DNA of 52,996 nucleotides, the filler included, from Sphacelaria rigidula (taxonomy: Eukaryota), in assembly GCA_964200075.2 (NCBI GenBank). It is 2 parts of 2 records of this genome, joined end to end, with 100 filler letters (N's around TTAATTAATTAA, not from the genome) between each part and the next. Parts side by side here need not be neighbours in the genome. Positions count along the whole stretch, not along the records: positions 26,565 to 52,996 come from CAXNAA020000138.1; 1 more part is not named here. The stretch is one strand, 5' to 3'. The position numbers and the translations under genes are program-made. Under the pieces are notes generated by a model. The model saw only the letters and a program-made list of their open reading frames with translations, was not told where the DNA came from and ran no database searches. Positions within the stretch are counted from its first letter, which is position 1. The number at the start of each line of letters is the position of its first letter. Below are positions 20,513 to 52,996 of the stretch, piece after piece.

Positions 20513-21956
20513 TACCGTACATTACTCAATATGTTCGCTGACGATATGTGGGATACGGCTGCTATTTTTTGCAACCAAGGACGCTCGGCAGGGAAAAACA
20601 ACGTAGAGCTGGCCCGGACCATGCACCCGCAGATACCTTCGCACGCCGGCGCGCATCTGCTGAACCTTTTCTCTCCGGTACCGACGCATGAACCGTGTCG
20701 CCACGGTGCGTCTCGGCGTTGTCGTAGAATATGGTGCAATATAGACCGAGTGTGCATCAAAGCAATGAGAGCAAAGATGGCAGCGGTGATGTTCTTGGTC
20801 TGAACCCACTGTCTAGTACCTGTTTCACTTCTGGTCTTCGCCGTGGCGGTATGTCTTTCGATATTCTCGAAGAAGAGCACGAATCTTCAACGAGTAGACG
20901 CAGTCGTTGTCTAAGTCGAACATTTCTGAAACTTCCACACAGGCCGCAGAGTGATCCTACGCACATTTCATTTCACCTCGGTAGGTATCCGCCGAGAGAT
21001 TTCAGGTCTTCCCACCGCTGGTTCGATCATACTCTGTCAGCACGTCTTTGCTGGTGTGATTCGGATGTCGGCTTCCATACAAACCTGAGTCTGTGTCATC
21101 GTTGTTCCCACGAAGTTTGCACCACAGATGGCAGCTGATTCTAAGTACTGTAGAGATTTACAAAATAATCGCAGTCACACCTGCGGTGAAATGATAAACA
21201 CGTCCCCTTTCGACTTGTACTGTCCGATGATCGACTATCGCTGTGAACCTTCTTCCAAGCCATGATTCGTTACGTGATTTTTTTCTGGTGCTGTTGACGT
21301 GGAAGAGTGACCGCCCCCCCCACCATGCGCGCTCGTTCAACGTGTATCCAAGTGTAGTGTACATGATACTGCACAGCTCTCGCTCACTGTGTTGACAATA
21401 TTGCCTGACTAATGATTTTGTTTATATTTTTAGCTAGCTTGTCCTTTCTGACTTGCAAACCCGGGCTTGTGTACTTCGGCATGTATAATGAATACACCAT
21501 GGCTTCAGATTTCTTTGTTATAGCTGGGCATGCTTTGACACTGGTATTTGTGGTCACATGTCTTCTGCGGCACGATCATCCTGCTATTGTACGATACGAG
21601 TGCTTTATTCGCTTCCGATTCCTGTTGAAATAGTGTAGAGGACGTCCCATTGGCTGGATTCATCTTGTGAGTAGTGCCGTAGTTGTTGGGATCAGCTTAC
21701 GTGAAGAGTCGTCTGCGTTGATTGCAGGCAGCTGCTTTTTCTCCGGAGTATGTGCCGCAACATATGCCATACGTTCCGCAAAGCGTCTCAACTCTCTTTC
21801 ACCCTTGGCTCACGGAATAGTTTCTGCCGTTTTGGATTCCGTGCTACCGTGAACAGTTTGCTTTCGAAGAATTACCACGCGAGCGAGCTCATGGCCTAAG
21901 TCGCGAGGAAAACGTACATCAGCCAGGGCTGCTCTGAGCCGCCATCTGACGGTTTA

Positions 21957-23993
21957 TTGGGTTTCAAGACGGAGTTTTGCTCCAAGCAGGCCAGGTCGGG
22001 AATGGTGCATGTGGTGAGAAGGAAGTGCCGTGATGAGGGCTGCCCTAAGCGGCCGTCGTACGGTGTAGCGGGAAGCAAAAAAGCGGAGTTCTGCTCCCAC
22101 CATGCTCGAGCGGGAATGGTGGATGTGGTGAACAAGAGGTGCGGCTATGATGGCTGCTCTACGCAACCGTCGTATGGTGCAGCGGGGAGCAAAGAGGCGC
22201 AGTTCTGCTCCAAGCATGCCACGGCGGACATGGTGGATGTAGTGAGCAAAAGGTGCGGCTACGAGGGGTGCTTCACACATCCATCGTATGGTGTAGCGGG
22301 GAGCAATAAGACGCAGTTCTGCGCCAAGCATGCCGCGGCAGGAATGGTGAATATGAGCAGGAGATGTGTTCACGACAGCTGCTCCACGCGGCCGTCGTAT
22401 GGTGCAGCGGGAAGCAAGACGGTGCAGTTCTGCGCCAAGCATGCCACGGTAGGAATGGTGAATTTGAGCAAGGGGTGCGGCTACGACGGCTGCTTCACGC
22501 AGCGGTCGTATGGTGTAGCGGGGAGCAAAAAGGCACAGTTCTGCTCCAAGCATGCCAGGGCGGGAATGGTGAATGTGAAGAATGGTAAGTGCGACGACGA
22601 GAGATGCTTCAAGCTCCCGTCGTATGGTGAAGCGGGAAGCACGAGGGCGAAGTTTTGTCACGAGCATGCTAGGGCGGGAATGGTGAATATGAGGAACAGT
22701 AAGTGCGCCGAGGAGGGATGCTCCTCCCGTCCCTCGCATGGTGTAGCGGGAAGCAAGAAGGCGAAGTTCTGCGTCAAGCATGCGTGGGCGGGAATGGTGC
22801 ATGTAGTGCACAGCGTGTGCGGTGACAACGGCTGCTCCAAGCTTCCCACGTATGGTGTGGCGGGGAGCAAAAAGGCGGATTTTTGTTATGAACATGCTAA
22901 GGCAGGAATGATGAATGTGAAGAGCAAGAAGTGCAGCGATGAGGGCTGCTCCACGCGTCCGTCGTTTGGTGTGGCCGATAGTAAAAAGGCAGAGTTTTGC
23001 TTCATGCATGCCAGGGCGGGAATGGTGAATGTAGTTGACAAGAGGTGCGGCGGCGAGGGCTGCTCGAAGCAGCCGTCGTATGGGGTAGCGGGAAGCAGAA
23101 AGGCCGAGTTCTGCTTCCACCATGCCAGGGCGGGAATGGTAAGTGTGCTGAAGAAGAAGTGCGGCCACGAGGGCTGCTCCATGCGGTCGTCGTATGGTGA
23201 AGAGGGAAGCAAGAATGCGGAGTTATGCTCTAAGCATGCCAAGGCGGGAATGGTTAATGTGGTGATCAGGAGGTGCAGTGAAGAGGGATGCTCCAAAGGG
23301 GCAATCGATAAGAAGGACAACGGTGGTGAGGCAAAATTTTGCCGACGGCATGCTGTTGCGCACAATACAGCTGCAGTGTCCGATGCCGCGAAGCTCAATT
23401 CTGGGAAAGACACTCCCAGCTGTAGCCCGACGGAGGGTGGTTGGAGAAGTGTTGCTGATATACGAGGAACGAAACGCAAGGGCGCGGCACTCTGGGGCTC
23501 TGCTACAAACGACGGCGCTGGTGCTCGCCGTAGCGTGTGTCCCGGTTCAAGGCAGGGTGTAAGAACACCGTTGCTCTTGGGACACCCACCTTCGAGGGCT
23601 GATGGCGAGGTGTCTTTGGTGACAAAAGCCGGGGCAGGAATGAAGGTAGAGCTGGCAGTCTCCTCTCCTGCACACGGTGATGTATCGTTTTGGGCAAAAA
23701 GAGGGGCGGGGATGACGATAGACCTCGCCGTCCCCTCCTCCACACACAGTAGCGATGGGGTGAGGGAGTGTCGCGAGCAGGTTGCCCCTCCGAGTGGTTG
23801 GAGAAGCGGTGGTGGTAGTCGCAGCTCCAACAGCGGTGATGGGAGTACGGGGCGGCTCTGTGGTTCGACGGCAGTGGTACCTGGACGCATGGACACGTGT
23901 GATACTGTAGACTGCGGAGAGGCAGGGGGGGTTTCGAACGTGAAGTTGGAGCTAGGCGTGTCTAGTTCTCCTCGGACGTTCGATAATTGGTAG
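21957..23993 (+). CDS. EsV-1-7 cysteine-rich repeat protein (about 12 repeats) with low-complexity C-terminal tail
   Basis: 678-codon ORF. Eleven 37-38-aa units C-x4-C-x3-PSYGxxGSKKAxF-C-x2-H-ARAGMV plus one divergent unit (22026-23351). Start uncertain: first in-frame ATG at 22002, in-frame TAA at 21897, and an upstream exon is possible. Confidence 0.92.
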   Translation: MGFKTEFCSKQARSGMVHVVRRKCRDEGCPKRPSYGVAGSKKAEFCSHHARAGMVDVVNKRCGYDGCSTQPSYGAAGSKEAQFCSKHATADMVDVVSKRCGYEGCFTHPSYGVAGSNKTQFCAKHAAAGMVNMSRRCVHDSCSTRPSYGAAGSKTVQFCAKHATVGMVNLSKGCGYDGCFTQRSYGVAGSKKAQFCSKHARAGMVNVKNGKCDDERCFKLPSYGEAGSTRAKFCHEHARAGMVNMRNSKCAEEGCSSRPSHGVAGSKKAKFCVKHAWAGMVHVVHSVCGDNGCSKLPTYGVAGSKKADFCYEHAKAGMMNVKSKKCSDEGCSTRPSFGVADSKKAEFCFMHARAGMVNVVDKRCGGEGCSKQPSYGVAGSRKAEFCFHHARAGMVSVLKKKCGHEGCSMRSSYGEEGSKNAELCSKHAKAGMVNVVIRRCSEEGCSKGAIDKKDNGGEAKFCRRHAVAHNTAAVSDAAKLNSGKDTPSCSPTEGGWRSVADIRGTKRKGAALWGSATNDGAGARRSVCPGSRQGVRTPLLLGHPPSRADGEVSLVTKAGAGMKVELAVSSPAHGDVSFWAKRGAGMTIDLAVPSSTHSSDGVRECREQVAPPSGWRSGGGSRSSNSGDGSTGRLCGSTAVVPGRMDTCDTVDCGEAGGVSNVKLELGVSSSPRTFDNW

Positions 23994-27813: not shown

Positions 27814-28249
27814 TGTGACGCTGACTGGTCAGTAGTCTAGTTGGTTGTCTCTTAAACCGTCACAAAAGTTAGTCGCTAGTTCGATTTGCGTCGGACGCAC
27901 TTTCTTTGAAGAAAAAAGATGAGAGAAAACCTCTGATAAAAAATTGGCCCCAACGAGAGAAACCTCCGTAACAAATTGGCCCAAAAGAAAAAAGGGTGGG
28001 GTATAGCCTGGTGGCTATATTTGGAGTTGGCTGCTAAGGATCCCAGTACACACACTCTGGGAACGAGTGGGGGAGACGAGAAACTCTCGGGTACGGTGAG
28101 AGTGACACATTAGAGGTCCTGATGGCAGTCAATAGAGCGCTGGCAAGGGGAGTCGCCCTCCTCGGAGTGAAAGTGACGGGGACTGGACCCCCACGACTAA
28201 CTTTTGTGACGGTTTGAGAGACAACTAACTAGACTACTGACCAGTCACA
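27814..28249 (-). mobile_element. tRNA-derived TIR element (TGT...ACA), copy with shortened outer arms
   Basis: ~55-bp inverted repeats tgactggtcagtagtctagtt.gttgtctct.aaaccgtcacaaaagttagtcg at both ends; body matches 47167-47631 in the opposite orientation. Confidence 0.85.
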
Positions 28250-28721
28250 AGCGACGCTACGCTGCCTCACACGTTAATCTTGCGGTTTACTGCTGTATTC
28301 GCCACATGAGGTCGAACTACTGTGCCTATTTCACATCCCCCGTTTACTCATGCCAGCTGGGCTTGGTGTTGTTCACCCCGCGCCTGCGCAATGATGCCCC
28401 TGCAGCTTCACAACGCTGCCGTGTGATGGGTAAATATGATCTTAAAAAGGATGGCTATTAGATTAACGACATGCGTTGTTGTTGTATGTTGTATCTTTCA
28501 ACCCCCGAAAGCACATGACGACCTGTCTGTGGCGAATAACTTGCTTTTACTTGGGATGTCAACTGCAGGCGGGTTGAATCAGGTGTTACCACTCACGCAG
28601 CTACTACTGTAGGCTATGATTTCGCCGTGTGATGAGACAACGCCATGCTTTCTTTATAGCCGTGACAGGTCAGATCTTTCGCATACAGCAATAAAAAAGT
28701 CGGAGCGATTACTCTTTACAC

Positions 28722-28889
28722 TGTAGACCTAGCCACCATTGTTACTTAAGGTCAGGAACTTTGTAGGTGGAGTTGCGGGTCTGATTGCCGGACTCTGTGA
28801 TGGTGACCTCCATGACGAGTAGAGCCGGTTTTGCTTCTCTGGTGGAGGGAGGCTATGGTCCTGTTCTCCTGTAGTGACAGAAGTCTACA
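28722..28889 (+). mobile_element. Solo LTR with internal deletion
   Basis: TGtagac...gtctaCA with perfect 4-bp TSD acac (28718-28721, 28890-28893); homologous to 52656-52914. Confidence 0.9.
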
Positions 28890-31929: not shown

Positions 31930-34900
31930 TGACACCATATTTGGCCTTCAGACACTCCCGTTTCTGCTTATTCAGTCTCAACTTCCGCAGTTCAGACCGT
32001 ACAAACTGCGGCGCTCCTCCCCAAATAACATCCAACGGCTCCCATTAACACTCGTCCTCGTCAAAACCTACCCATTCCACACGTACATCGTAGCCATCTC
32101 CTTCGTGAGCCTCAGATATCCCGGCGATGGCCCCCATCTCAAAGTCTCCGTGAGCATAGGCATGCTGGAACACCTCCTTCAGATCCGCGGTGACCTCCAG
32201 TTCGTTGTCCGCATAGTACCGAAGACGGGCGACATGCGCATCCTTTACCTCGCCATTCACGATATTCTGAATCTCGTAGACATGTTTTTCCTCCACTGCC
32301 ACGATTCTCCAAGGCCCTGTCAACGTAACGTACTTACGAGTTTCGGCGTTGTTCCTGAGCGCCTAACCCGCGCAGCCAACACATGATCACCCACCATGAA
32401 ATTTGGCAACTGTCTCACACTAGCAACACGTCGTTGCATTTCACGAGTCTTCTCAATACGCTGCGCCACCTCCTTGTGCAGCTCTTGCTGCGCCTCCACG
32501 ACTGATTCCATCTTCTCCCGCAGCATATCCTCATCCAGCACACCAAGTCGCCATTCGCCGCCGGTCGACGATGGCAGGGATGAAAAACTTGTTCGCGGCG
32601 CCCGTCAAACATCACATGGTATGGCGCACTGGTGTAGCGCTCGCAGAATAACGTGTTCAATACCCACTGTAAGGCAGCCATCAGTCCCACCCAGTCACGA
32701 ATGTCGCGCCTCTCTTCTTGCAGTATGGGCTTCAAAGTACGGACAACCTCTCGTATCATCCTTTCACACGTACCATTTGACGATGTCGAGTTTGGAACCG
32801 CGAACCTCCTGTCCAGCTTCAGTGCCTTCTCCAGTGCTCGCATCACACGGTTCTTGAAATGCGACGCGGTTCCACTAACCCAGACCTCCGGTGGACCGAA
32901 CGCCTTGCACCACGCCACCAGATGCTGCACCGTCGCTGCAGCTGTACAAGACTCGGTGAGCTCAAAGCACGCGAAATTGCACAGATCATCCTCCAGGCCG
33001 CTCTCGCCCACCGGATCACGTTGGACAACGTACAGATAATCAAAATGCATCACGTCACGGGGCCGTGTGCCGTGCAGTGTCTCCCCTAGTGGCCGCGGGA
33101 CCGTCTCACCCGCTTTCGAGTCCACATAATGCAAGCATTTCCTCACACAATCTGTCACATGAGCTTCCATCCGAAACCAACAGCAGTACTCTTACAGCCG
33201 GTGCAGTGTCGCCACAACACCCCGATGGCCCGCCTCCTTCATGTGAGCACACACCATCATCCAGCGTGTTTGCAGCTCTTTTGCTTGCGGCGGGATCCAC
33301 AACATATTCCACCCTGCTGCATGCACGCAAAATAAACCCTCCCTGTCTTTCGCAACTCGCCCAACAGCTGCTGCAAAAGTTGGGGCTCCAGCAACCATCA
33401 CTCCGAACCCGGCTCGAGCCTGCTCTTGGGCCTCACGAATAGCGTTCTTCGACGGCAGCGTTTCATCAGGCTGATCGCTTGCAAACACGGCCGCAGCACG
33501 CACAGACACCGCCGGGACGTTAACCCACCTTGACAAGAAGTTTTCCAAGCAGTTGCGCTCATCAGCAATATGCCTGATGAAGTAATCCCACTGCCCGAGC
33601 ACAGCCTGCTATTGCTCGAGCCTCTGGGCAGCAGTCTTAGACACGGATGCAACGCACGCCTCGGGATTAAAAACGTATGCTAGGTTACGATGATCGGTGA
33701 TGATATGTACCCCACCCCATTGAAGATACTACCCAACCTACGGAAAGTACTCACGATTACATTTGTCGCTTTCACCGTATCCTAGAGTTACTCGTCTCCC
33801 CCATTCATTCCAAGAGTGTGCACTGGGGTCCTTGGCGGTACACTCCAAATAAACCCCACCCTTTTTTTTTTTGGGCCAATTTTTTACAAAGGTTTTCTCT
33901 CCCTGGGGCCAATTTTTTATCAGAGGTTTTCTCTCCTCTTTTTCTTCAAAGAAAGAGCGTCCGACGGGAATCGAACCAACTAGACTACTGACCAGTCAGC
34001 GCTGACTGGTCAGTAGTCTAGTTGGTTATCGCTTGAAACACCACATGCATCAGCCGCCAACAGCATCTGGTAGTAACCCTGCAGCATATCAATCGTGCCA
34101 AAACACGCAGCGCCTAGCAGGTCGATCATCTCCGCCTCGTTGCTATGCATAACATTCGGACCCTTCTCAATCTGCTTTTTTACCGCGCGATAGTTACTCA
34201 CCAGTCGATAATTGCCCTTCTTCGGCCTCGCCATGGCCGTACTCGTCCACACTGCCTGTAAGCTGCGAAATACTAGCCCAAGCGCCACCAGTGTCGCCAT
34301 ACACCCTGCTAACCACGCGGCCTTTACAGGGCAATAATACACCTGCGGGCTCGCCTTGACTGCTCTAGCCCCAGGTTTGAATTTCACCCTCAATGGCTCT
34401 CTCTCTACACGAGCAGGCGAATAATAGCGCAATGCTCACCGAAAAGCGGTGACACGTCGCCCAGTGACCTCCCGACGCTTATCAACGCCGCTCGTCGATA
34501 TCCCCTTGTCCGCAGCCGCCTGTACTACATGATCCGATGAAACACGAACCTCTGCCAGCTCCTCCTCTTGAGTCATGTTCATCTCGGCACAACGCGACAT
34601 CAATCGCTCAACGGAGGGATCCACAGGCTCCTCTTGCCCACCTGGATCTTGTAACGCCTCAATCGCAATGCTCATGCGCCTACATTCTCGGAATTCAGGC
34701 GCATCTACACCTCTCACCAACGCGTGTCTTCAGCGTGCGCATGCGTCCAGCCACTGTACACGTCAATGCCCATGGCCTCCAGCGTACCGCTCTCGATGAT
34801 CACCACATCATCAGCACCTGGCATGACCGCATAATGACACGGATCCAGCACCACCGGCCCCCAGCTGGTGTGCAGAGCGGTGCGCACTAGGCACGTCTTT

Positions 34901-35361: not shown

Positions 35362-38300
35362 TGTAGAGTAGTCCACCTCCGGTACACGTACGTGCAGGTT
35401 CATGATGATCTACAAATGGAACAATCCGCTGTAGGCGTTTTCTATTGGTTGACGGGCTTGCGGGTCTGATCGGCAGATTATGTGGATTTGAACATCACAT
35501 GCTTCACGCATGCGCTTACTTCCGATAACGAAGGCTGTATGTTTATGAATAACAACTGTCTTGAAGTCTCCAGGCCCTGGTGAGGGAGGAAGCCCTTGGA
35601 GCAATCTTGTGACCTTGTTCTGAGTCCGGGACGGCTCTATAATAAACGTTTATTAAGAGGAAACCGCTAGTTTCTGAAAGAAGTTTGTCAGCTGTGGACA
35701 GCTGGGAAAAATTATATCAAAATTTGAACACAGTAGAGTGCACACTGTATTGTGAGGGAGCTCGCTGGCAACGGAGAGACGGCTAGGTTGGCTGGAACTG
35801 ATGCGTGCAGCTATTGAAACGCGCAAGAAAGTGGATGATGGTGATGCAGGCGAAGAGGTGAAGTTTAAGTTTACTGAGCTTATGCCTGCAGGATCGCTGA
35901 AAGCCCTAGAGGACGGACGGCATTTTAGCGAAAATGCGTCCCGACGTTTTTATCTGAAATACGTCGAGTATGAAGAGGCGATCAAAATGAACAACAAAGG
36001 ACGTAGCATGCAGGCCATCTTACTGACGGTTACTGAACTGGTGCCGAGGCACATACGTGCGTGTTTGTCACGCGAGTTTTGACGGATCTGTGCTTGACGA
36101 AGACGATCTCAAGGAGGCACTGGGCCGACACGCGAAGTGTTGGGAGGATGAAGAGATTGATCCTTCAGTTGCTGCTGCTGGTGTGCGGAAAGCGTTGGCT
36201 GCTCGCAACGAGCAAACTGCAGTAGGAAGAGTAGAAGGGCAGTGGGGTGCCCTGGAGGAATTTTTTGCGGAGAATACTAGCGCTGAGCGTGCGTTCCGCG
36301 ATGATGCAGATTTCAAACCGGGACCCGCTCAAATCATAACTTGGGAAATGTTGAATGGACCGACCCCCCCTGAATTCAAAAGTAAAGTCCTCAATATGTT
36401 GAACATGAATGGGGGGTGGAAGGAGGACCCTGGGCTTGTGTTTAACACGGCTCGGGAAGCAGCGGAAGCATGGAAGACGGTGGAAGCGCCGTCAGCAGCC
36501 GCAGCTGAAACAAAGGAGTGGCAGCGGGACCTCCGGATCCGAGCGCGAACCGAATGGTGGAAAAACGGCGACCGCTGGCAGTGAGACACCAGTTCCAGGA
36601 AATCTCGGGAACCAGGTCCAAGCTATGCACGTTGTTTCTCATGTGGAGACAAGGGCGACTTCGTGAAGAAGGATTGTAAGCAGCAAAGCCAAGCTGCTGC
36701 TCCGATACTACAGGTGGGTAATCGAAGGCCGGCGACAAGCAGCAGCAACAACAGCAGCTGTCGCAGAACCCTGGACAGGTGCCTCGCGGAGGGGGCACGA
36801 GTCCCGCCCCTACAAGGGCTGTCTTTTCAGCCGATGGACAAAGTGCTGCCAGCGGGGGGGCGACGTTGCCACCAGAACCGATCGTTTTTACTGGTGGCGT
36901 GCAGCAGACCATCTCATCGCACTCGTTCCCGGGTTCGAACTCTGCGGCGGTGCCAGCAAGGAAATCGCTCAAAGCGGGTGAGATGTCAGGTTTTCAATCT
37001 AAGGGTCTGCAAGTAGATCACAAGGAAAGGTGGTGTCTTGCCGACTTGTCTGTCCCGAGTGCCGGAGCAAAGGGTGTTTGTCCGGTCAAGGCCATTTCAG
37101 ACTCGGGATCTGGAATTCCGACCATGTCAGTGGGTGTAGCGGTGAAATTACAAGCTATGGCTCCAGATGTTCGAGTGTTTACACCGATGGTCGATGAACG
37201 GCAATGTTGAGCGTGTGAAGCAGAAAACTTGCGCTGTCCGCATCGCTTTACACACCAGCTTGGGACCGGTTGTGCTGGACCCATGTTCATATGCAGTCAT
37301 GCCAGGTACAGATGGTGTGGTCATCATGGGGAGCCCTACGCTGGAGGCGCTGGGCATTGACGTGTACAGTAGCTTGGGTGCCTCTGCACGTGCAAGAAAC
37401 ACTTCGGTGCGAGGTGTAAACACGCCTGATTTTACGGACTGTCGGCGTGTCAGTACCACGGGTGACGCTTTACAGCAACCAGGAGGCCGGGTGGAGCCCG
37501 TTTATTCCTCAGTCAAGCGGTTGTTGTCGAGAAGTCCGGCGATGAGCACATCCCCGGAACAAGAGCTTGCTGAGCTTGATGTTGCGCCGGAGGAGGCAGT
37601 ACAAGCCGCCGCGGATAACGGCATATCGGAGAGCGACGTGAGCCAGATTCGTGAACCTGTACGGAACAGAGCGAGCATTTTTAGATGAGTGCTGCATGGT
37701 TATCGGCCTGCTCGCGTCGAGCCCTGGAGGGTGAAATTCAAACCTGCTGCTGTGGAGGCAAAGGCTCGGCCGAGGGCATACTTTCCGGTCAGGATGGCGT
37801 GGTTGGCACGCTTCATCGCAACATTGGTGGCGCTCGGGCTCGTGTACTGCAGTTTGCAGGTAGAGTGGGCGAGAGCGGCGATTGCAACGCCCGAGAAGTC
37901 CTGTTTTCGCTGGATGAATGCATACAAGGCGGGGGAGGGAGTTTCCCGTCACCACAAGGAGGTCCGCTGGGGGATAATGGCTTGGACAAAGGAGATCGGT
38001 TCAAGTATATATTGGTAAAGATGGATGACCCGGTCGACTTCGTGCGGTTGGGGCCCGCGGAGTCGTGTACGGCAGCAACGACGGTGAAGCATCTGTTAAC
38101 ATGGTGCGAAGCGCTGGGGCCGCAGGAGGGATGGGTCAGAGATGCGGTATCGCAATATGAGAATCGTGTGGTGAGAGTGCTCAAGAAGGCGCTGATGGAT
38201 CGCAGATTCGTGGTGGCCAATTCGCGGTCGTCACATCGTGAATGTGAGCGAATGGTGCGTGACATTGTTCGTACCTTGAAGGTCATAATGCAGAGAGAAA

Positions 38301-39820
38301 CACTCGATGCCAACGCCTGGGTGGGTTTGGTACCTGCCGTGTAGTGGGCATTGCACACTGGTTTTCGGGACAGCTGTGAGAGCTGTAGCTGTATCTATGA
38401 TGCGAGGAGCCTGTTGGAGTGGAAATGCTACTCTACGGTGTGGACGAGATTGTAGCCGGAGAGCTGCTGTTTCTCAGGAGGAGCGCAGGAGAATTACAAG
38501 TCAGGCATTGCCTGAGGTGCTGGATGTTGCGGTGAGCGCCGGGTTGGGTGATGTTAAGGAGCATGTACTAGTGGAATTTCTTGTTGAGAATGAGGAAGCA
38601 CATTGTGACCTGTATACCTGAATCGTTTTGAGGACGATTGTAGGTGGTGGTGATGTGGTTCCTGGACTTGTCTGTTGTGTTGAGCTGGTTGGCACGCATG
38701 ATACATGGTGGTTTCTACGAAGAAGCTGCTGAGTGAAATATGAGCATGCAGGTGTGACTGATGTGCATGGTGTCTGATAAAGAGTCAGAGTGAGGCAGTT
38801 TCCAATACACTGCTGTGTGCTGAATGAAATACAGCTCGTATATTATTGTTCGCGCCAAAAGTGGAATCATCTTTGTGCGGTTTGCAAAAACTGGCTGTAG
38901 GAGATGGTGATTGCTGCTGCTGGCGTGAAAATGAGCGGAAACTACGAAATGCGTATGCTTGTATGTGAACAAGTATAACGTGAGTATTTCCAGAGGTAAA
39001 CGATGAACGAAATCGTACGCGGATACAGTGATCTTTTACTGTGGTACATCTTTGATGGCTTGTCATGTGTTTGGATAAGCGCATAGATGGTGTTTCGCTC
39101 TGAAAAACGGAGAATGTGGATGGTGTGCCTATTTTTCTGGAAGGAGCACCGCCTATTTGTTCTAAGCTGCGTCAGTAAGAACTGAGTCAAACGGTGCGGG
39201 CACGGTTGTAGGCAAAGTACGGTATCAAGCTTTGAGTGCATGGTATGATCGAATGCTATGGTTTGAAATGGTATTTTCCTCGGCGCGTTTGCTTTGTGTG
39301 AGCATGCCACGACTGGAAATTGTCGTTGGGTGAATTATTGACTTCACTAAATTCGATTGAGACGCTGTGTTCAAGTGTCGTTATTCAGCGTTTTGCGAAT
39401 GATCATTTTCTTTGTGAACATGACATAGCATGGTCATGTGTCACCAACAGGCGGACAAAGGTAGCATGAACGTGTTTGTCGGTGTCTATTGTTTGTCAAA
39501 CTCACTTCCTACTTCGAGCAGTGCGGAGTTTTGGGGGTGCTGTAGAGTAGTCCACCTCCAGTACACGTACGTGCAGGTTCATGATGATCTACAAATAGAA
39601 CAATCTGCTGTAGGCGTTTTCTATTGGTTGACGGACTTGCGGGTCTGATCGGCAGACTATGTGGATTTGAACATCACATGCTTCACGCATGTGCTTACTT
39701 CCGATAACGAAGGCTGTATGTTTATGAATAACAACTGTCTTGAAGTCTCCAGGCCCTGGTGAGGGAGGAAGCCCTAGGAGTAATCTTGTGACCTTGTTCT
39801 GAGTCCAGGACGGCTCTATA
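35362..39820 (+). mobile_element. Internally deleted Ty3/Gypsy LTR retrotransposon with both LTRs
   Basis: 280-bp LTRs at 35362-35641 and 39541-39820; I count 9 substitutions, 8 of them transitions. Termini TGtagag...ctcTA-TA. TSD imperfect (cccc/ttcc). Confidence 0.95.
35801..38370 (+). pseudogene. Frameshifted gag-pol remnant
   Basis: gag with degenerate knuckle CFSCGDKGDFVKKDC (~36633); protease AISDSGSG (~37091); RT N-terminus 37690-37930 joined directly to integrase core (KYILVKMDD...ECERMVRDIVRTLK). YxDD and RNase H are absent. Confidence 0.9.
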
Positions 39821-42827: not shown

Positions 42828-44623
42828 GCAAAAATTCGCACATGCCTGCCAAAATACCACTCAGCGTATGAAAATCCGAACATGCCTGCCAATATTTCAC
42901 TCGTCACATGCAATGCCACCTTCCTCGCAGCAAACACCATGCAACGTCCGTGACAACCAGATCAGCACAACACACACATGCCAAATACCCACATGTACGC
43001 CAGAGTTTCACTCTGCACACGCGATACGATCATACTCGCTCGACAACCATGTTTCATGCGCAAAGATGACCACAAACCACACAATAACAAGCTGCAATCA
43101 TTCTCAAAACGATTCGCGAATACCAGTCATGATGTGTTTCCTCATTCTCAACAAGCACTCAATCACCTCAGCACTTGCTCCTCAACATCAGCACCCAACT
43201 CGGCGTACACCACAACAGCAAACACCTCAGGAAATGCCTTCTTTGTAGTCCTCCAGCTCGCTCCTGAGAAACAGTAGCACTCGAACCACAACCCCGTGCA
43301 CAGCGTAGAGCAGCGCTTCCTCTCGGATACCCCCTTCTTTTACCTTTAGTCTTGCTACACTTGGCACCCCCATGGTGTAGCTCAACACACCGCTCAAAGG
43401 TACATTCGCACTGCGAAACCTATGCGACAGATCCTCCGCCTCCACAGCTGCTTTGGCAGTACTGAACACCTGTGCTTCAGTCAGTTTCACAAAGGAAACC
43501 AGAGACGAAACGGGAACAGCTACACAGTCCCGAACAGCAACACCTCCTGATGGCACACTCTCCTCCTCAAACACCCCGCGGCGCAACAGTGGAGACACCG
43601 CCGCCATCGCCGCCAAATACACCAAACCTGTCCATGCATACAGCAGTGCACACGACCACCCCAACACCATGCCACGCTCGTCGTCGTCGTCGGAATTATG
43701 ATCGCTGACAGCATCACGAGCTTGCAGGTCGCTCTGCATACCCACTTCACGCGGGTCACACGCCCCTGTTGTCTCGATCATGCAAGGCGTGTCCACAGCT
43801 ACGCGCTAGTCCGGCGGCAATTCCGCCAACCCGGCATCCACCTGTCCTTCAAGCAGACACCCCTGCGAATCATCTGAACGATGTTCCGCCCTGTCACTGG
43901 CGCGGATAGATTCACCGGCATGAGGTCAGAAACTGCTGCCACCTCATAGAGGTTTGTCCACCGCGCGTTCACCTGTTCTACATCTCGAAAATATTGCTCA
44001 CATTTGCGTAAAAACTGGGCAGATTTCTCTCCCGAAAACTTGCGGCCGTAGTCCGGCATCTCCAGCGCCAGTACAGGAACAACACGACCATCGACGATGG
44101 CATATTCCTGCGCCTCGTACATTTCGGTCAGCAGTACAGTACTCCACACGCCTTCTTGAAAAACAAAGTCGCCTCCCACTCACAGGAACAACAACTCTCT
44201 CCTTACACCGAGACGCGCTGTACCACCTTACAACGACAACGGCCACAGCACCTCTTCCTCACGCAGGTCTCACCACGTGTTTGACGTCCTTAGACTCCTC
44301 TTCCTGGCCGTACCTGGCCAAGCGTGGAACAAGCAACGCTCGCTGGCTTCACTAGGCAGTGATTTCGCCGCTTTCCTGGAACGCGCACGGGCTCGCCAGC
44401 TGTCAGTCAACCCCCCGCACCTCTCGCACGAGCGATACCGCAGCCCAACCTAGCACTGCCTCAGAACCTCCTCGGCTCTACTCCTCCAACTGCTCGCGAC
44501 GTTAACACGCCTTGAGCTGGTCTCGTTTGCTGCAAACTGATCAGGCCTACAGGCTTCCCTATCTTGAAATGTCAGCTGCTTTACAGCGAAACTACCGCCT
44601 CAGCGGACTCAGTGAACGTTCAT
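42828..44623 (-). mobile_element. Internal region of a non-autonomous LTR element (gag N-terminus, no pol), copy A
   Basis: MPDYGRKFSGEKSAQFLRKCEQY...VSDLMP resembles gag at 35890-36050; collinear with copy B. Confidence 0.8.
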
Positions 44624-44882
44624 TATAGACTTCTGTCACTCATATCAGATCGCCATGTGGACTCCTCCCATGACGGGCACATGGACTTCAGCAGCTTTGC
44701 TTATTTATGTAGTAACCCTCAGCATAGTACAGGAGAACAGGACCATAGCCTCTCTCCACCAGAGTAGCAAAACCGGGCCTACTCGTCATGGAGATCACCC
44801 ATCACAGAGTCCGGCAATAAGACCCGCGACTCCACCTACAAATGCCCCTAACATCAGGTGACAATGATGGCTAGAGTCTATA
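44624..44882 (-). mobile_element. 259-bp LTR between copies A and B
   Basis: tatagac...gtctata; reverse complement of 52656-52914. Confidence 0.9.
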
Positions 44883-47700
44883 GTGCCAACCAGATCAGCA
44901 CAACACACATATGCCAAATATCCACGTATACGCCAGACTCTCATCCTACACACGCGATACGATCATACTCGCTCAACAACCATGTTTCATGCGCAAAGAT
45001 GACCACAAACCACACAATAACCAGCTGCAACCATTCTCAAAACGATTCGCGAATACTAGTCATGACGTGTTTCCTCATTCTCAACAAGCACTCAATCATC
45101 GCAGCACCTGCTCCTCAACATCAGCACCCAACTCGGCGCTCACCACAACAGCAAACACCTCAGGTAATGCCTCCTTTGTAGTCCTCCAGCCCGCTCCTGA
45201 GAAACAGCAGTACTCGAACCACAACCTCGTGCACAGCGTAGAGCAGCGTTTCCACTCGAACACTCGCTCCTTGAGCCATGAGTTAAGCTACAGCTCTACC
45301 CTCGTGGATTTGCTCAGCTCGTCACTAAAAGGTATATCCGCACCGCCGAACCAATGCGACAAGCCATCTGTCTTCACAGCTGCTTTGGCAGTACTGAACA
45401 CCTGTGCTTCAGTCAGTTTCACAGAGGAAACCAGAGGCAAAACGGGAACAGCTACACAGTCCCGAACAGCAACACCTCCTGATGGCACGTTATCCTCCTC
45501 AAACACCCCGCGGCGCAACAGTGGAGACACCACCGCCATCGCTGTCAAATACGCCAAACCTGTCCATGTAAACAGCGGTGCACACGACCACCCCAACACC
45601 ACGCCACGCTCGTCGTCGCCGTCGGAATTGTGATGGCTGACAGCTTGCAGGTCGTTCTGCGTACCCGCTTCACGCGGGTCACACGCCCCTATTGTTTCGA
45701 TCATGCAAGGCGTGTCCACAGCTACGCGCTGGTCCGGCGGCAATTCCGCCAACCCGGCATCCACCTGTCCTTCAAGTAGACACCCCTGTGAATCATCTGA
45801 ACGATGTTCCGCCATATCACTGTCGGGGATAGATTCACCATGAGCACGGCAAGCTCCCAGCTCACCCTGCTCGTTCGCAATACGCGAATAACACCACCCT
45901 ACAGCTTTGAGCATGCAAGGATTATCTCCAGCTACGCACTGGTCCGGCGGCACTAAGCAGCTGGGACCTCCACCCACCAGTACTTGCCCATTGGCCCATG
46001 TAGGCCTCGCCCTCTCAACATCGCCAACAGCAGCAGCGGTATCACCCATATTCGCTACAGCCGCCACCTCCTGTCCGGCTTGCTGCTTGACGGCAATAGT
46101 GGCAACGCCTCCAGCGCTCTCGTGCCTGTTCCCTCGGACTAGCGATGGCTATGTGACTTGTTCGACTCGTCCAACAGCACTGCCAGCGGCTGCTAATTCA
46201 GCAACGACTACTGTACTCTCACTGTTCTTGCTGCCGAGTGCGTCTCTTCGGACAGACACATGCGTCGTCACCTTCGCGCCCCTCAAAGTGGCACCGTGTT
46301 GTTGCTTCAGTCCCGGGCGAGCGGTTTCTACTTCTGCACGCTCAGCAGGTGCACCATCGTGCCTGTCGCCTCGGGCAGACACATGCTTCTCGGCTTTCAC
46401 AGTGCAAGCATTTTCCCTGTATCGTTGTTTCAAACGCGGACCACCTACTGCACGTTCGGCGGGTGCACTGTCGTGCCTCTCCCCTCGGGCAGACACATGC
46501 TTTTCGGCTTTCACAGTTCAATGCGCCCCACTGGACGAAGCATGCTTGCGCAACGCGAAAAGCAACTGCTCGTTCTCAACATCATAATTATGTTTCAATA
46601 ACGCCTCACGCAGACATTGCGCAATATGTTTCGGCATAAGGTCAGAAACTGCTGCCACCTCAAAGAGGTTTGTCCACCGCGTTTTCACCTGATCTAGATC
46701 TCGCACGTATTGGTCTTATTTCGGTAAAAACTCGGTCGATTTCTCGCTCGAAAAACTACGGCCGTAGCACGGCATCTCCAGCGCCAGTACATGAACAACA
46801 CGACCATCGACGATGACATATTCCTGCGCTTTGTACATTTCGATCAGCAGTACAGCACCTCACACCGCCTTCTTTCGAAAAACGAAGTCTCCTCTCACTC
46901 ACAGGAGCAACAACTCTTTCCTTACACCAAGACGGGCTGTACCACCTTACGACGACCACCACACACGCCTCTTCCTCACGCGGTTCTCACCACGTCTTGT
47001 AGTCCTTAGACTCCTCTTCCTGACCGTACCTGGCCAAGCGTGGAACACGCAACCCTCGCTGGCTGCACCAGGCAGTAGCTGCGCCGCTTTTTCTGGAACG
47101 CTGCTGGGCTCGCTAGCTGTCGACCAACCCACCGCACCTCACGCACGAGCGATACCACAGCCCACCTGTGACGATTCACAGGCAACCGATCATTAGATTA
47201 CCGTACAGTCAGCTTACGGTAGTCTAGTCGGTTGCCTATAAATCGTCACAGAAGTTAGTCGTGAGGGTTCGATCCCCGTCACTTTCACTCCGAGAAGGGC
47301 TGTCCCCTTGCCAGCGCTGTAAAACTGTTCGCGCTCACGGTATCGGTCTAATGTTGGCAACACGTATCCTGTCGGAGTTTCCCGTCTCCCCCACTCATTT
47401 CCAGAGTGTGTGCACTGGGGTCCCTAGCAGTCAACTCGGGGATTGGACTCTCCCACATGACCCTCTTTTTTACCGGAGGTAGGGTTTTCCTCATTTCTTT
47501 AAAAAAAGTGCGTCCGACGGGAACCGAACCAGCGACTACATTTTGTGACGATTGGTACGAAACCGATTGGACTACCACGCAGTCAGCGCTGGCTTTGCAG
47601 ACGTCTAATCGGTTGCCTATAAATCGTCACACGCCCTAGCACTACCTCAGAACCTCCTCGGCTCTACTTCTCCAACTCCTCGCGACGTTAACCCGCCTTG
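44883..47700 (-). mobile_element. Internal region of non-autonomous LTR element, copy B (longer)
   Basis: 44887-45840 repeats 42954-43915; 46635-47165 plus 47636-47700 repeats 43915-44515. Extra ~800 bp includes a ~117-bp internal duplication at 46330-46520. Confidence 0.85.
47167..47631 (+). mobile_element. Complete tRNA-derived palindromic-TIR element (Ginger-like or integrase-mobilised)
   Basis: Boundaries defined by the empty paralogous site at 44442-44456. Termini TGTgacgatt...aatcgtcACA; 4-bp TSD cacc/cgcc. Confidence 0.85.
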
Positions 47701-48364
47701 ACAGCAGCGGCCCAAGGACAGCAAAGAGCCTCACAAAAATAACTGCACACCTATACCGTGGTAGTGCTCTGAAGATATCGATGAAATGATTTACCATGAT
47801 GATTGAATGATTGATTAATTACATGATTGTCGCACTTCCCCTGAGCCCTCAGGGATTCAGCCGTGGTCACATTATAGGCAGACGTACCCCAGACGAAACA
47901 CATCTGAAACACCCGCTGAAGAACAAAAATGATTACGCAGATAAAAAAATACATTGATGTTTCACCCCTGCATTTGACGTCGCTCGATTCCCCCTCAATC
48001 AAAAGTCACAATTTTCCATTCTGTGGTCACTGGCTTTCTTTCGTGTGCCTCGGTAGTGCTTGTTGCCCATCATGTACTTGGTCGGGCTCTATCTACCAAA
48101 AACATATGTCACGGTCAGGAAAGGTGATGGCGCTGTTGAATCACAGTACTTGTCAGTGTTTGAAATTAAAAAATACGTATTGGCTGGGGTGCTAAAAAGG
48201 TCCTACTCGTGGGTGGCATATTGTTCCGCATATATTCATCGGGGGGATGAATACATATGGGTGAAACTTTAGCTTTGAACTTTTGAAGAGCTTCCAAATA
48301 AAAGCTACACGTTTTCGTTCTGGGGAAGTTGTCTTACGCAGGTGCCAGAGGATGAGCTGGGTGG

Positions 48365-52295: not shown

Positions 52296-52419
52296 CGCCT
52301 GCCAGATGAATGCGCGGTGAACAAACCGTTTTGAGGTGACAGCAGTTTCTCACCTCATGCCAAAACATATTGCGAGATGTCGGTGTTACACGTTCTTGGG
52401 GCATGATTATGACGTTGTG

Positions 52420-52655
52420 TATAGACTTCTGTCACTCAAGATCAGATCGCCATGTGGACTCCTCCCATCTCGAGCACATGGACTTCAGCGGCTTTAGTTA
52501 TTCATATATTAACCCTCAGAATAGTATAGGAGAACAGGACCATAGCCTCTCTCAACCAGTGTAGCAAAGCCAAGCCTCACGTCATAGAGGTCAAGCATCA
52601 CAGGGTCTGGCAATCAGACCCGCAACTCCACCTACAATATCCCTAACCTTAGGTA
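52420..52655 (-). mobile_element. Older LTR copy, truncated at its U3 tip by the next element
   Basis: Collinear with 44624-44860. Confidence 0.85.
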
Positions 52656-52996
52656 TGTAGACTCTAGCCACCATTGTTACCTGAGGTTGGGGACGTATGT
52701 AGGTGGAGTTTTGGGTCGGATTGCCGGACTCTGTGATGGGTGACGTCCTTGACGAAAGAGCCTGGTTTTGCTACTCTGGTGGAGAGAGGCTATGGTCCTG
52801 TTTTCCTATACTATGCTGAGGGTTACTACATAAATAAGCAAAGCTGCTGAAGTCCCTGTGCCCGTCATGGGAGGAGTCCACATGGCGATCTGATATGAGT
52901 GACAGAAGTCTATAATGAACGTTCATTAAGTCCGCTGAGGCGGTAGGTACGCTGTAAAGCAGCTGACATTTCAAGATAGGGACGCCTGCAGGCCTG
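52656..52996 (+). mobile_element. 5' LTR (52656-52914) and leader of an element running off the window
   Basis: 259-bp LTR TGtagac...gtcTA-TA; leader is the reverse complement of 44542-44623. Confidence 0.9.

Follow-up and report, generated by a model that had tools for sequence, protein, structure and literature searches.

What kind of mobile element ends in palindromes that are each joined to a promoter of the tRNA type facing inward? This question is raised by a 465-bp insertion at positions 47167-47631 of a 52,996-nucleotide stretch of Sphacelaria rigidula DNA (filler included; here called the window), which was joined from two records of the assembly GCA_964200075.2. A first-pass annotation had described it as a mobile element whose ends are tRNA(Asp)-like palindromes cut at the anticodon loop. 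We report that the insertion is indeed a mobile element belonging to a sizeable non-coding family, in which two palindromes (P) enclose an internal region (I), and that P behaves as a long terminal repeat (LTR). [quoted passage not shown]

The insertion and its empty site

The window copy belongs to subfamily A and has the structure P-I-P. Each P consists of two 44-nt arms; the left P (47167-47250; arm 1, 47167-47213, and arm 2, 47214-47250) is centre-shortened, and the right P (47544-47631) comprises arm 3 (47544-47587) and arm 4 (47588-47631). These palindromic ends, like the TGT...ACA termini, are where the first-pass annotation had placed them; they read TGTGAC...GTCACA and give a DNA fold with z = -6.7. 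Between them lies the non-coding I (47251-47543), the minus strand of which is purine-rich. The inverted repeat extends ~30 bp inward past P, being perfect over 11-12 nt (inner inverted repeat; left copy 47251-47261, plus strand, right copy 47533-47543, minus strand) and diverging thereafter.

The host repeat occurs twice in tandem (42950-44515 and 44883-47701, 86-94% alike), recurs at other loci and gave no Pfam match in the scanned frames. The paralogous empty site that had been proposed was found, with the core CAAC at 44446-44449 (plus strand; motif 44441-44454), and five further empty paralogues read CGCC (three) or CACC (two). The flanks of the insertion are CACC (47163-47166) and CGCC (47632-47635; both plus strand), and since the empty paralogues read CGCC or CACC we interpret them as a 4-bp target-site duplication with one later change. 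A clean 4-bp duplication had been claimed; exact duplications are seen family-wide (see below), but the flanks of the window copy itself are inexact.

Three copies had been counted in the window and three are present, but the other two belong to subfamily B and have other arm sequences. The second (27814-28249, minus strand, flanks CGCT/CAAT) has lost the outer arms at both ends down to the terminal hexamer, with joins at the palindrome centre, and likewise one end of locus L152. The third (33763-34045, plus strand) is partial, with the right portion of I remaining together with a truncated right P.

The family and its terminal repeats

The assembly behind the window comprises 244 Mb in 27,214 contigs and is fragmented. 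Family searches were seeded with the window copy (336 candidates) and with a copy of the second subfamily (640 candidates), and 40 were scored per seed. After removing duplicate loci from 133, the family set holds 121 distinct clusters, a few of which are two pieces of one insertion; the arms are of type A in 56 and of type B in 58. The family is built on the P-I-P plan, with P being a palindrome of 88-90 bp with TGTGAC...GTCACA ends and I being ~295-340 bp long. Copies differ from the column majority by a median of 5.8% (31 A copies) and 7.3% (39 B copies), and hence the family is not young.

Aligning the flanks showed that the TGT...ACA ends and a fixed 4-bp duplication hold across the family. 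An exact 4-bp duplication was detected in 33 of 53 two-ended copies and one with at most one mismatch in 43, and none of the 53 has an exact duplication at 3 or 5 bp; shuffled flanks gave 1.25 exact 4-bp duplications on average (maximum 7). L002 and L003 are both found in one other repeat family, but at separate positions, so that each shows the empty site of the other (GGGT and GCTC). The view that this is a non-autonomous element with integrase-type ends (TG...CA, 4-bp duplication, non-coding) is thus upheld. A short interspersed nuclear element (SINE) was rejected because the duplication is fixed at 4 bp and the TG...CA ends are fixed, as opposed to a variable duplication, a 3' tail and 5' truncation.

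In the terminal-repeat test P counts as a direct repeat because it is palindromic, and the element is <1 kb, non-coding and bounded by TG...CA. That P behaves as an LTR is also evident from the forms in which it occurs. Solo P with duplications is found at L064, L066 and L069 (and at L067 with an extra part arm), and head-to-tail P-I-P-I-P lies under a single duplication that is exact at L017 and L098 and agrees at three of four positions at L008; L134 has this form without a duplication. Head-to-head forms were observed at L014, L156 and L158, with one exact duplication and one break at the P centre.

Some copies carry insertions of their own. A candidate third subfamily with flip/flop ends (L110, L111, L118 and L137) was discarded, as these loci really carry a CCCTT...AAGGG element with piggyBac-type ends in the TTAA of a B arm; at L137 this element stands on either side of I in opposite orientations and the outer arms are gone, as in a composite transposon. 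At L021, arm 3 is interrupted (between the arm pieces 1277 and 1489) by a 211-bp inverted-repeat element that has TG...CA ends, a 5-bp duplication (CAACC) and internal telomere-like AACCCT repeats; it was seen as a single copy.

Target preference and the local Gypsy family

The target of the element is T-NN-[GNNC]-NN-A. Read in the orientation of the element, the duplication begins with G in 29 of 33 copies but ends with C in only 21 of 33, i.e. there is a slight left/right asymmetry. A matrix derived from 161 half-sites of the element scores 34 half-sites of the local Gypsy family at 0.88, compared with a mean of -1.55 and a maximum of -0.24 among 10,000 random sets (r = 0.65).

This chromodomain Gypsy has TG...TA ends, and its window copy (35362-39820; 5' LTR 35362-35641 and 3' LTR 39541-39820, both plus strand and 97% identical) represents a candidate source of RT and integrase. 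Its relatives match Gag knuckle, protease, rve (integrase) and chromodomain. Exact 4-bp duplications flank three of five solo LTRs and one full copy, and the window copy is without one. Brown-algal chromodomain Gypsy elements of the ECR-1-like kind also make 4-bp duplications, and in the curated Ectocarpus library the complete Gypsy families are reported with 4-bp and Copia with 5-bp duplications (PMC12477816). That the local LTR family could supply the integrase, as suggested in the first-pass annotation, is therefore plausible given the chromodomain Gypsy identity, the 4-bp duplications and the same target preference. Like the element, the Gypsy family has no TGG-type primer-binding site (PBS), and as the two have no sequence in common we consider it a candidate helper and not the parent. 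A perfect 16-bp palindrome behind the 5' LTR (35640-35655), which includes the last two bases of the LTR, is conserved across copies (L168-L197) and shares no 8-nt stretch with the LTR; it is reminiscent of the palindromic CHSeq1 described for the fungal GalEa Copia elements (PMC5445492).

Promoter boxes and the question of a tRNA origin

Both inward units have an A-box and a B-box (left unit, 47220-47231 and 47266-47276, plus strand; right unit, 47563-47574 and 47519-47530, minus strand), and these are real as motifs: the box pairs of three copies reach 27.8, 30.8 and 31.1 bits, compared with maxima of 14.6-20.7 among shuffles, and the lowest value is that of the window copy (maximum 14.6 in 300 shuffles). 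They are spaced 44-46 nt apart, compared with 42-45 nt in 53 of 57 tRNAs. The A-box lies inside P and the B-box inside I, and the P centre is positioned 13 nt upstream of the A-box, which is a normal distance for a Pol III start. Leaving out 40 loci that were found through the B-box pattern, the right B-box is less variable than the left (0.032 versus 0.076 in 31 A copies, 0.048 versus 0.113 in 19 B copies). The right B-box is the least variable box of the family, and has one private change in the window copy.

The identification of the units as tRNA(Asp) did not survive. ARAGORN called no tRNA gene in the window, and four Rfam covariance scans gave no tRNA match (top tRNA-clan score 11 bits, E = 8.7); matches to microRNA families in one of these scans were below the gathering scores and reflect the hairpin. 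The acceptor and anticodon stems of the unit do not pair, and a tRNA-3'-end-like stretch behind the right B-box (47509-47516, minus strand) is unpaired with the 5' side. Anchored on the B-box, the anticodon position of the right unit is TCA if the variable loop has 5 nt and CAC if it has 4; GTC requires 6. Hence there is support for the geometry of a promoter but none for an Asp identity, because the boxes are tRNA-spaced but there is no covariance match, the stems are unpaired and GTC is out of register. A pattern search for a possible parent tRNA, one whose acceptor stem would match the 3' end of the unit, gave no match. The tRNA comparison set comprised 60 sequences from the genome, with the nuclear set being incomplete and no tRNA-Asp among them.

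In a tRNA alignment the element terminus is indeed located where the anticodon loop would be, as had been noted, but neither a loop nor an identity is demonstrable there, and we find no support for the idea that an anticodon arm was turned into an integrase attachment site. Likewise, the T7 run after one unit is present (47501-47507, minus strand) but private to the window copy and a few others, being interrupted in the family; after the right unit most copies read AAAGAAAG, and any run of four or more A inside I was seen in only 8 of 70 copies. The tRNA-palindrome ends suggested for aphid Ginger2 elements could not be confirmed: the main text of the 2010 paper by Bao (PMC2836005) has none of "tRNA", "palindrom" and "hairpin", and our literature search gave no paper combining Ginger2, pisum and tRNA.

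Strand asymmetry and the predicted RNA

The two strands of I are unequal. On the plus strand a run of four or more T is present in 70 of 70 full copies (in the window copy a T6 run at 47466-47471 would stop a transcript of the left unit within I), and the minus strand is free of such runs in 62 of 70. A minus-strand T4 lies exactly on the left I/P boundary in 40 of the 70 copies, with 24 being unscorable and six having other lengths. In most copies this stop consists of the left inner repeat plus the last A of P; in the window copy it is broken to AGAAG. Convergent Pol III promoters making double-stranded RNA, as first proposed, are possible, but this is not the best reading because the strands are unequal.

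Taken together with integrase-type insertion (TG...CA ends, the 4-bp duplication and the Gypsy-like target preference), which is observed, these features suggest the following scheme. From the right-hand boxes Pol III would start at the centre of the right P, between 47587 and 47588, and read the minus strand; termination at the boundary T4 would leave an RNA of ~340 nt (A) or 385 nt (B), corresponding to one arm plus I. Folding predicts that the 3' end of this RNA pairs with the 11-12 nt immediately following the arm, with a probability of at least 0.5 in 32 of 35 copies; in the window copy the putative self-priming site is the right inner repeat, directly behind arm 3. The 3'-OH could then prime copying of the arm from the TG terminus, and because priming would occur exactly there the end of the element would be set without a tRNA primer. 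The cDNA of the arm would end at the palindrome centre, and fold-back together with transfer at the inner repeat might rebuild P at both ends. This primer-free model, in which an RNA of one arm plus I primes itself at the integration terminus, is held tentatively and with less confidence than the retroelement reading as such. Were this model true, the promoter, the primer, the primer-binding site and both integrase sites would be encoded in one inverted-repeat module, with no tRNA primer or polypurine tract (PPT), and self-priming would be a novel means by which an LTR-type parasite fixes its ends and begins reverse transcription.

Exchange between the palindrome arms

Within each subfamily one majority sequence is common to all four arms. 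A and B arms differ by eight substitutions and one indel, while in the adjoining inner repeat left and right differ in the same way in A and B. Since the arms are uniform per subfamily and the inner-repeat differences are common to both, exchange between the ends extends no further than the P boundary, as it would in an LTR. In addition, 14 junctions to foreign sequence are positioned exactly on the P centre (judged by eye, 25 non-standard cases among 187 arms).

Sharing of arm variants was scored in a set of 21 units (L015, L018 and L001 dropped as duplicates) and later in a larger set (L024 dropped). Two early signals were abandoned: a left/right asymmetry in arm sharing (3 versus 14 in the 21 units) was lost in larger sets (20 versus 29; 19 versus 27), and an excess of direct pairs in the 21 units was largely due to two dimers. 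Whichever explanation applies, the family provides a clean natural data set on the homogenisation of palindrome arms and on breakage at their tips.

Alternative explanations

A number of observations weigh against the retroelement reading. There is no PBS, i.e. no TGG and a best match of 6 nt to the 60 tRNA sequences (nuclear set incomplete), and no PPT in either orientation, which leaves second-strand priming unexplained. The arm variants are mostly mosaic and not four-fold (B38A is present in 23 of 103 arms with no variant pattern across all four arms; a four-arm variant was seen in one case, B19T), which argues against strict copying from a single arm. Variant sharing is above chance both for direct pairs (17 versus 5.5) and for inverted pairs (13 versus 5.8), so that LTR-type copying is not singled out, and the strongest sharing is within one palindrome (19 versus 4.1; 27 versus 6.4). 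Host hairpin repair can yield sharing within a palindrome and breaks at its tip, and such correction plus cruciform breakage, with no role in transposition, could explain the head-to-head forms as well as the sharing and the junctions at the tip. The substitution spectrum is strand-symmetric, and the strand asymmetry of I may be one ancestral accident. The whole-RNA fold is no better than shuffles (z = -0.45), and the panhandle is due to the inverted repeat, which a DNA element would have too. The first T-run behind tRNA genes on non-organellar contigs is T4 in 6 of 25 (T5 or longer in 17, none in two), and therefore the boundary T4 may be a leaky stop. Finally, the target-site test has no second integrase family as control and counts both half-sites of one insertion, and no sequence is common to the element and the Gypsy LTR loci beyond stray copies.

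A serious rival, which we regard as possible but less than probable, is a cut-and-paste MITE (miniature inverted-repeat transposable element) of a Ginger-like DNA transposon, i.e. one related to Gypsy integrases. It would have a terminal inverted repeat (TIR) of ~114 bp with the outer 88 bp palindromic, the Pol III boxes would be passengers from a captured SINE head, and solo P and multimers would arise through recombination between P copies or use of inner ends. The absence of a PBS and a PPT, the ~30 bp of inverted repeat beyond P, the raised sharing between inverted arm pairs and the presence of another small TG...CA TIR element in the genome (the insert at L021) all agree with this explanation, and host hairpin correction and cruciform breakage could produce the shared variants, the junctions at the tip and the head-to-head arrangement, which is why it stays a serious rival. 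Ginger1, Ginger2 and their MITEs are described with TGT termini, 4-bp duplications and inverted ends of 40-270 bp (PMC2836005, PMC3845634), features that the present element has as well. However, their targets are given as CCGG or CCGT (Ginger1; CCGG, PMC2836005) or AT-rich (Ginger2 MITE, PMC3845634), whereas the element targets GNNC as does the local Gypsy, and the available text of these papers describes no palindromic or tRNA-like ends. Homogenisation ends at the P boundary and not over the whole TIR, and the L021 element has a 5-bp duplication. The first-pass annotation had proposed looking for longer copies with the same TIRs around an integrase frame lacking RT; no such version was found among 51 truncated ends, which have no common continuation save an inserted TTAA MITE, or in 20 regions, none of which has the terminal motif (19 around 19 of 150 scored rve matches from 1,683 candidates, and one Gypsy contig), this being a small sample of a fragmented assembly. 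If correct, the MITE explanation would indicate that brown algae have an integrase-type DNA transposon not yet on record. The curated Ectocarpus library, as published, has no Ginger superfamily and one "possible Ginger" MITE with a 5-bp duplication (PMC12477816).

An improbable alternative is an element that exists as DNA only and has hairpin ends, which would be copied by fold-back with a host polymerase in a rolling-hairpin-like manner and cut at its CA ends by the Gypsy integrase, with transcription being incidental. It would account for the strong arm-to-arm sharing inside each P and for the head-to-head forms beside the head-to-tail dimers, but it leaves the conserved right B-box, the strand asymmetry and the boundary T4 unexplained, the apparent flip/flop variant of the ends is a piggyBac-type MITE in the B-arm TTAA, and a nicking enzyme or Rep partner was neither found nor, to our knowledge, is one known. 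The original idea of a pair of tRNA-Asp units that are interrupted in the anticodon loop, with an anticodon arm as integrase site and convergent promoters making double-stranded RNA, is the least credible and can be considered very unlikely: both units are tRNA-spaced and could be transcribed, with an overlap of ~220 bases, and the terminus is at the anticodon-loop position, but besides the missing covariance match, the unpaired stems and the 6-nt variable loop that GTC requires, the T7 is private and the left B-box is more decayed.

Relation to known systems

In its mode of action the proposed retroelement is most like Helenus/TRIMp3, which is described as non-coding, <1 kb and LTR-type, with tRNA-derived A- and B-boxes but no functional tRNA, and as forming solo LTRs and tandem arrays, with 4-bp duplications in the Gypsy-dependent (animal) families (PMC10886601). 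We nevertheless do not class it with Helenus. According to the same source the tRNA part of Helenus lies inside an ordinary LTR, and a tRNA-complementary PBS and a PPT are present (PMC10886601); in the element the LTR is palindromic, the A-box belongs to P and the B-box to I, the promoter occurs twice and faces inward, and both PBS and PPT are lacking. The tRNA-like part of Helenus does not prime, per that paper, and its hosts are listed as fungi, animals and Selaginella, with no stramenopiles (PMC10886601). Cassandra TRIMs resemble the element in having a Pol III promoter in the terminal repeat and LTR-internal-LTR-internal-LTR arrays, but differ in that the promoter is 5S-derived, a TGG-type PBS and a PPT are present and the LTRs are direct repeats and not self-palindromes (PMC7215508, PMC10886601). 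Indeed, the Pol III-driven TRIMs Cassandra, Helenus and Ajax are all reported to keep ordinary LTRs and a tRNA PBS (PMC10886601, PMC7215508).

[quoted passage not shown] In Tf1 the first nucleotides of the transcript prime, and GalEa and biv-TRIM are described with short local hairpins (PMC5445492, PMC6934838), whereas the candidate primer of the present element is the 3' end of its own transcript, which would be set by a T-run that stops Pol III and would pair across all of I. We found no description of the architecture of the element in the literature (Repbase, Dfam and most subscription papers lay outside the search), and the curated Ectocarpus list names nothing so described (PMC12477816; uncurated family sequences lay outside the search). 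Sower, an unclassified Ectocarpus repeat, is given with too little detail to compare (PMC3145265), and its 2.5-Mb total equals that of RTEX-N1 (PMC3145265, PMC12477816). Gypsy-type insertion together with palindromic terminal repeats and inward tRNA-type promoters, but no PBS or PPT, sets the family apart from the Pol III-driven TRIMs named above.

The DNA of the window also occurs in runs labelled algae metagenome. Pieces of the element family occur in assembled contigs from four of 20 listed runs, two of them only presumed to be RNA, and a few pieces in runs labelled as two other organisms; these are uninformative on strand, level and ends. A 25-nt motif of the element gave no match in a metagenome scan, and a 17-nt motif gave one in a viral scan, which is in an unrelated context and was taken as chance.

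Other features of the window and the genome

Organelle-type tRNA clusters are present among the genome sequences examined. At L049 (1500-1573) a tRNA assigned to Glu(CTC) combines a changed anticodon with the body of this genome's Lys(CTT) gene; it is not followed by a T-run and possibly represents an anticodon shift or a pseudogene. A further repeat of ~340 bp lies at 44542-44880, 52303-52996 and 28719-28873, and an inverted pair of it meets at 52655-52656. Pfam was run on 30 of the 69 window frames of at least 120 amino acids and the sole match was an EsV-1-7 array; it belongs to an open frame at 21900-23990 that encodes 697 amino acids, with 11 EsV-1-7 cysteine-rich motifs arranged on a 114-bp repeat.

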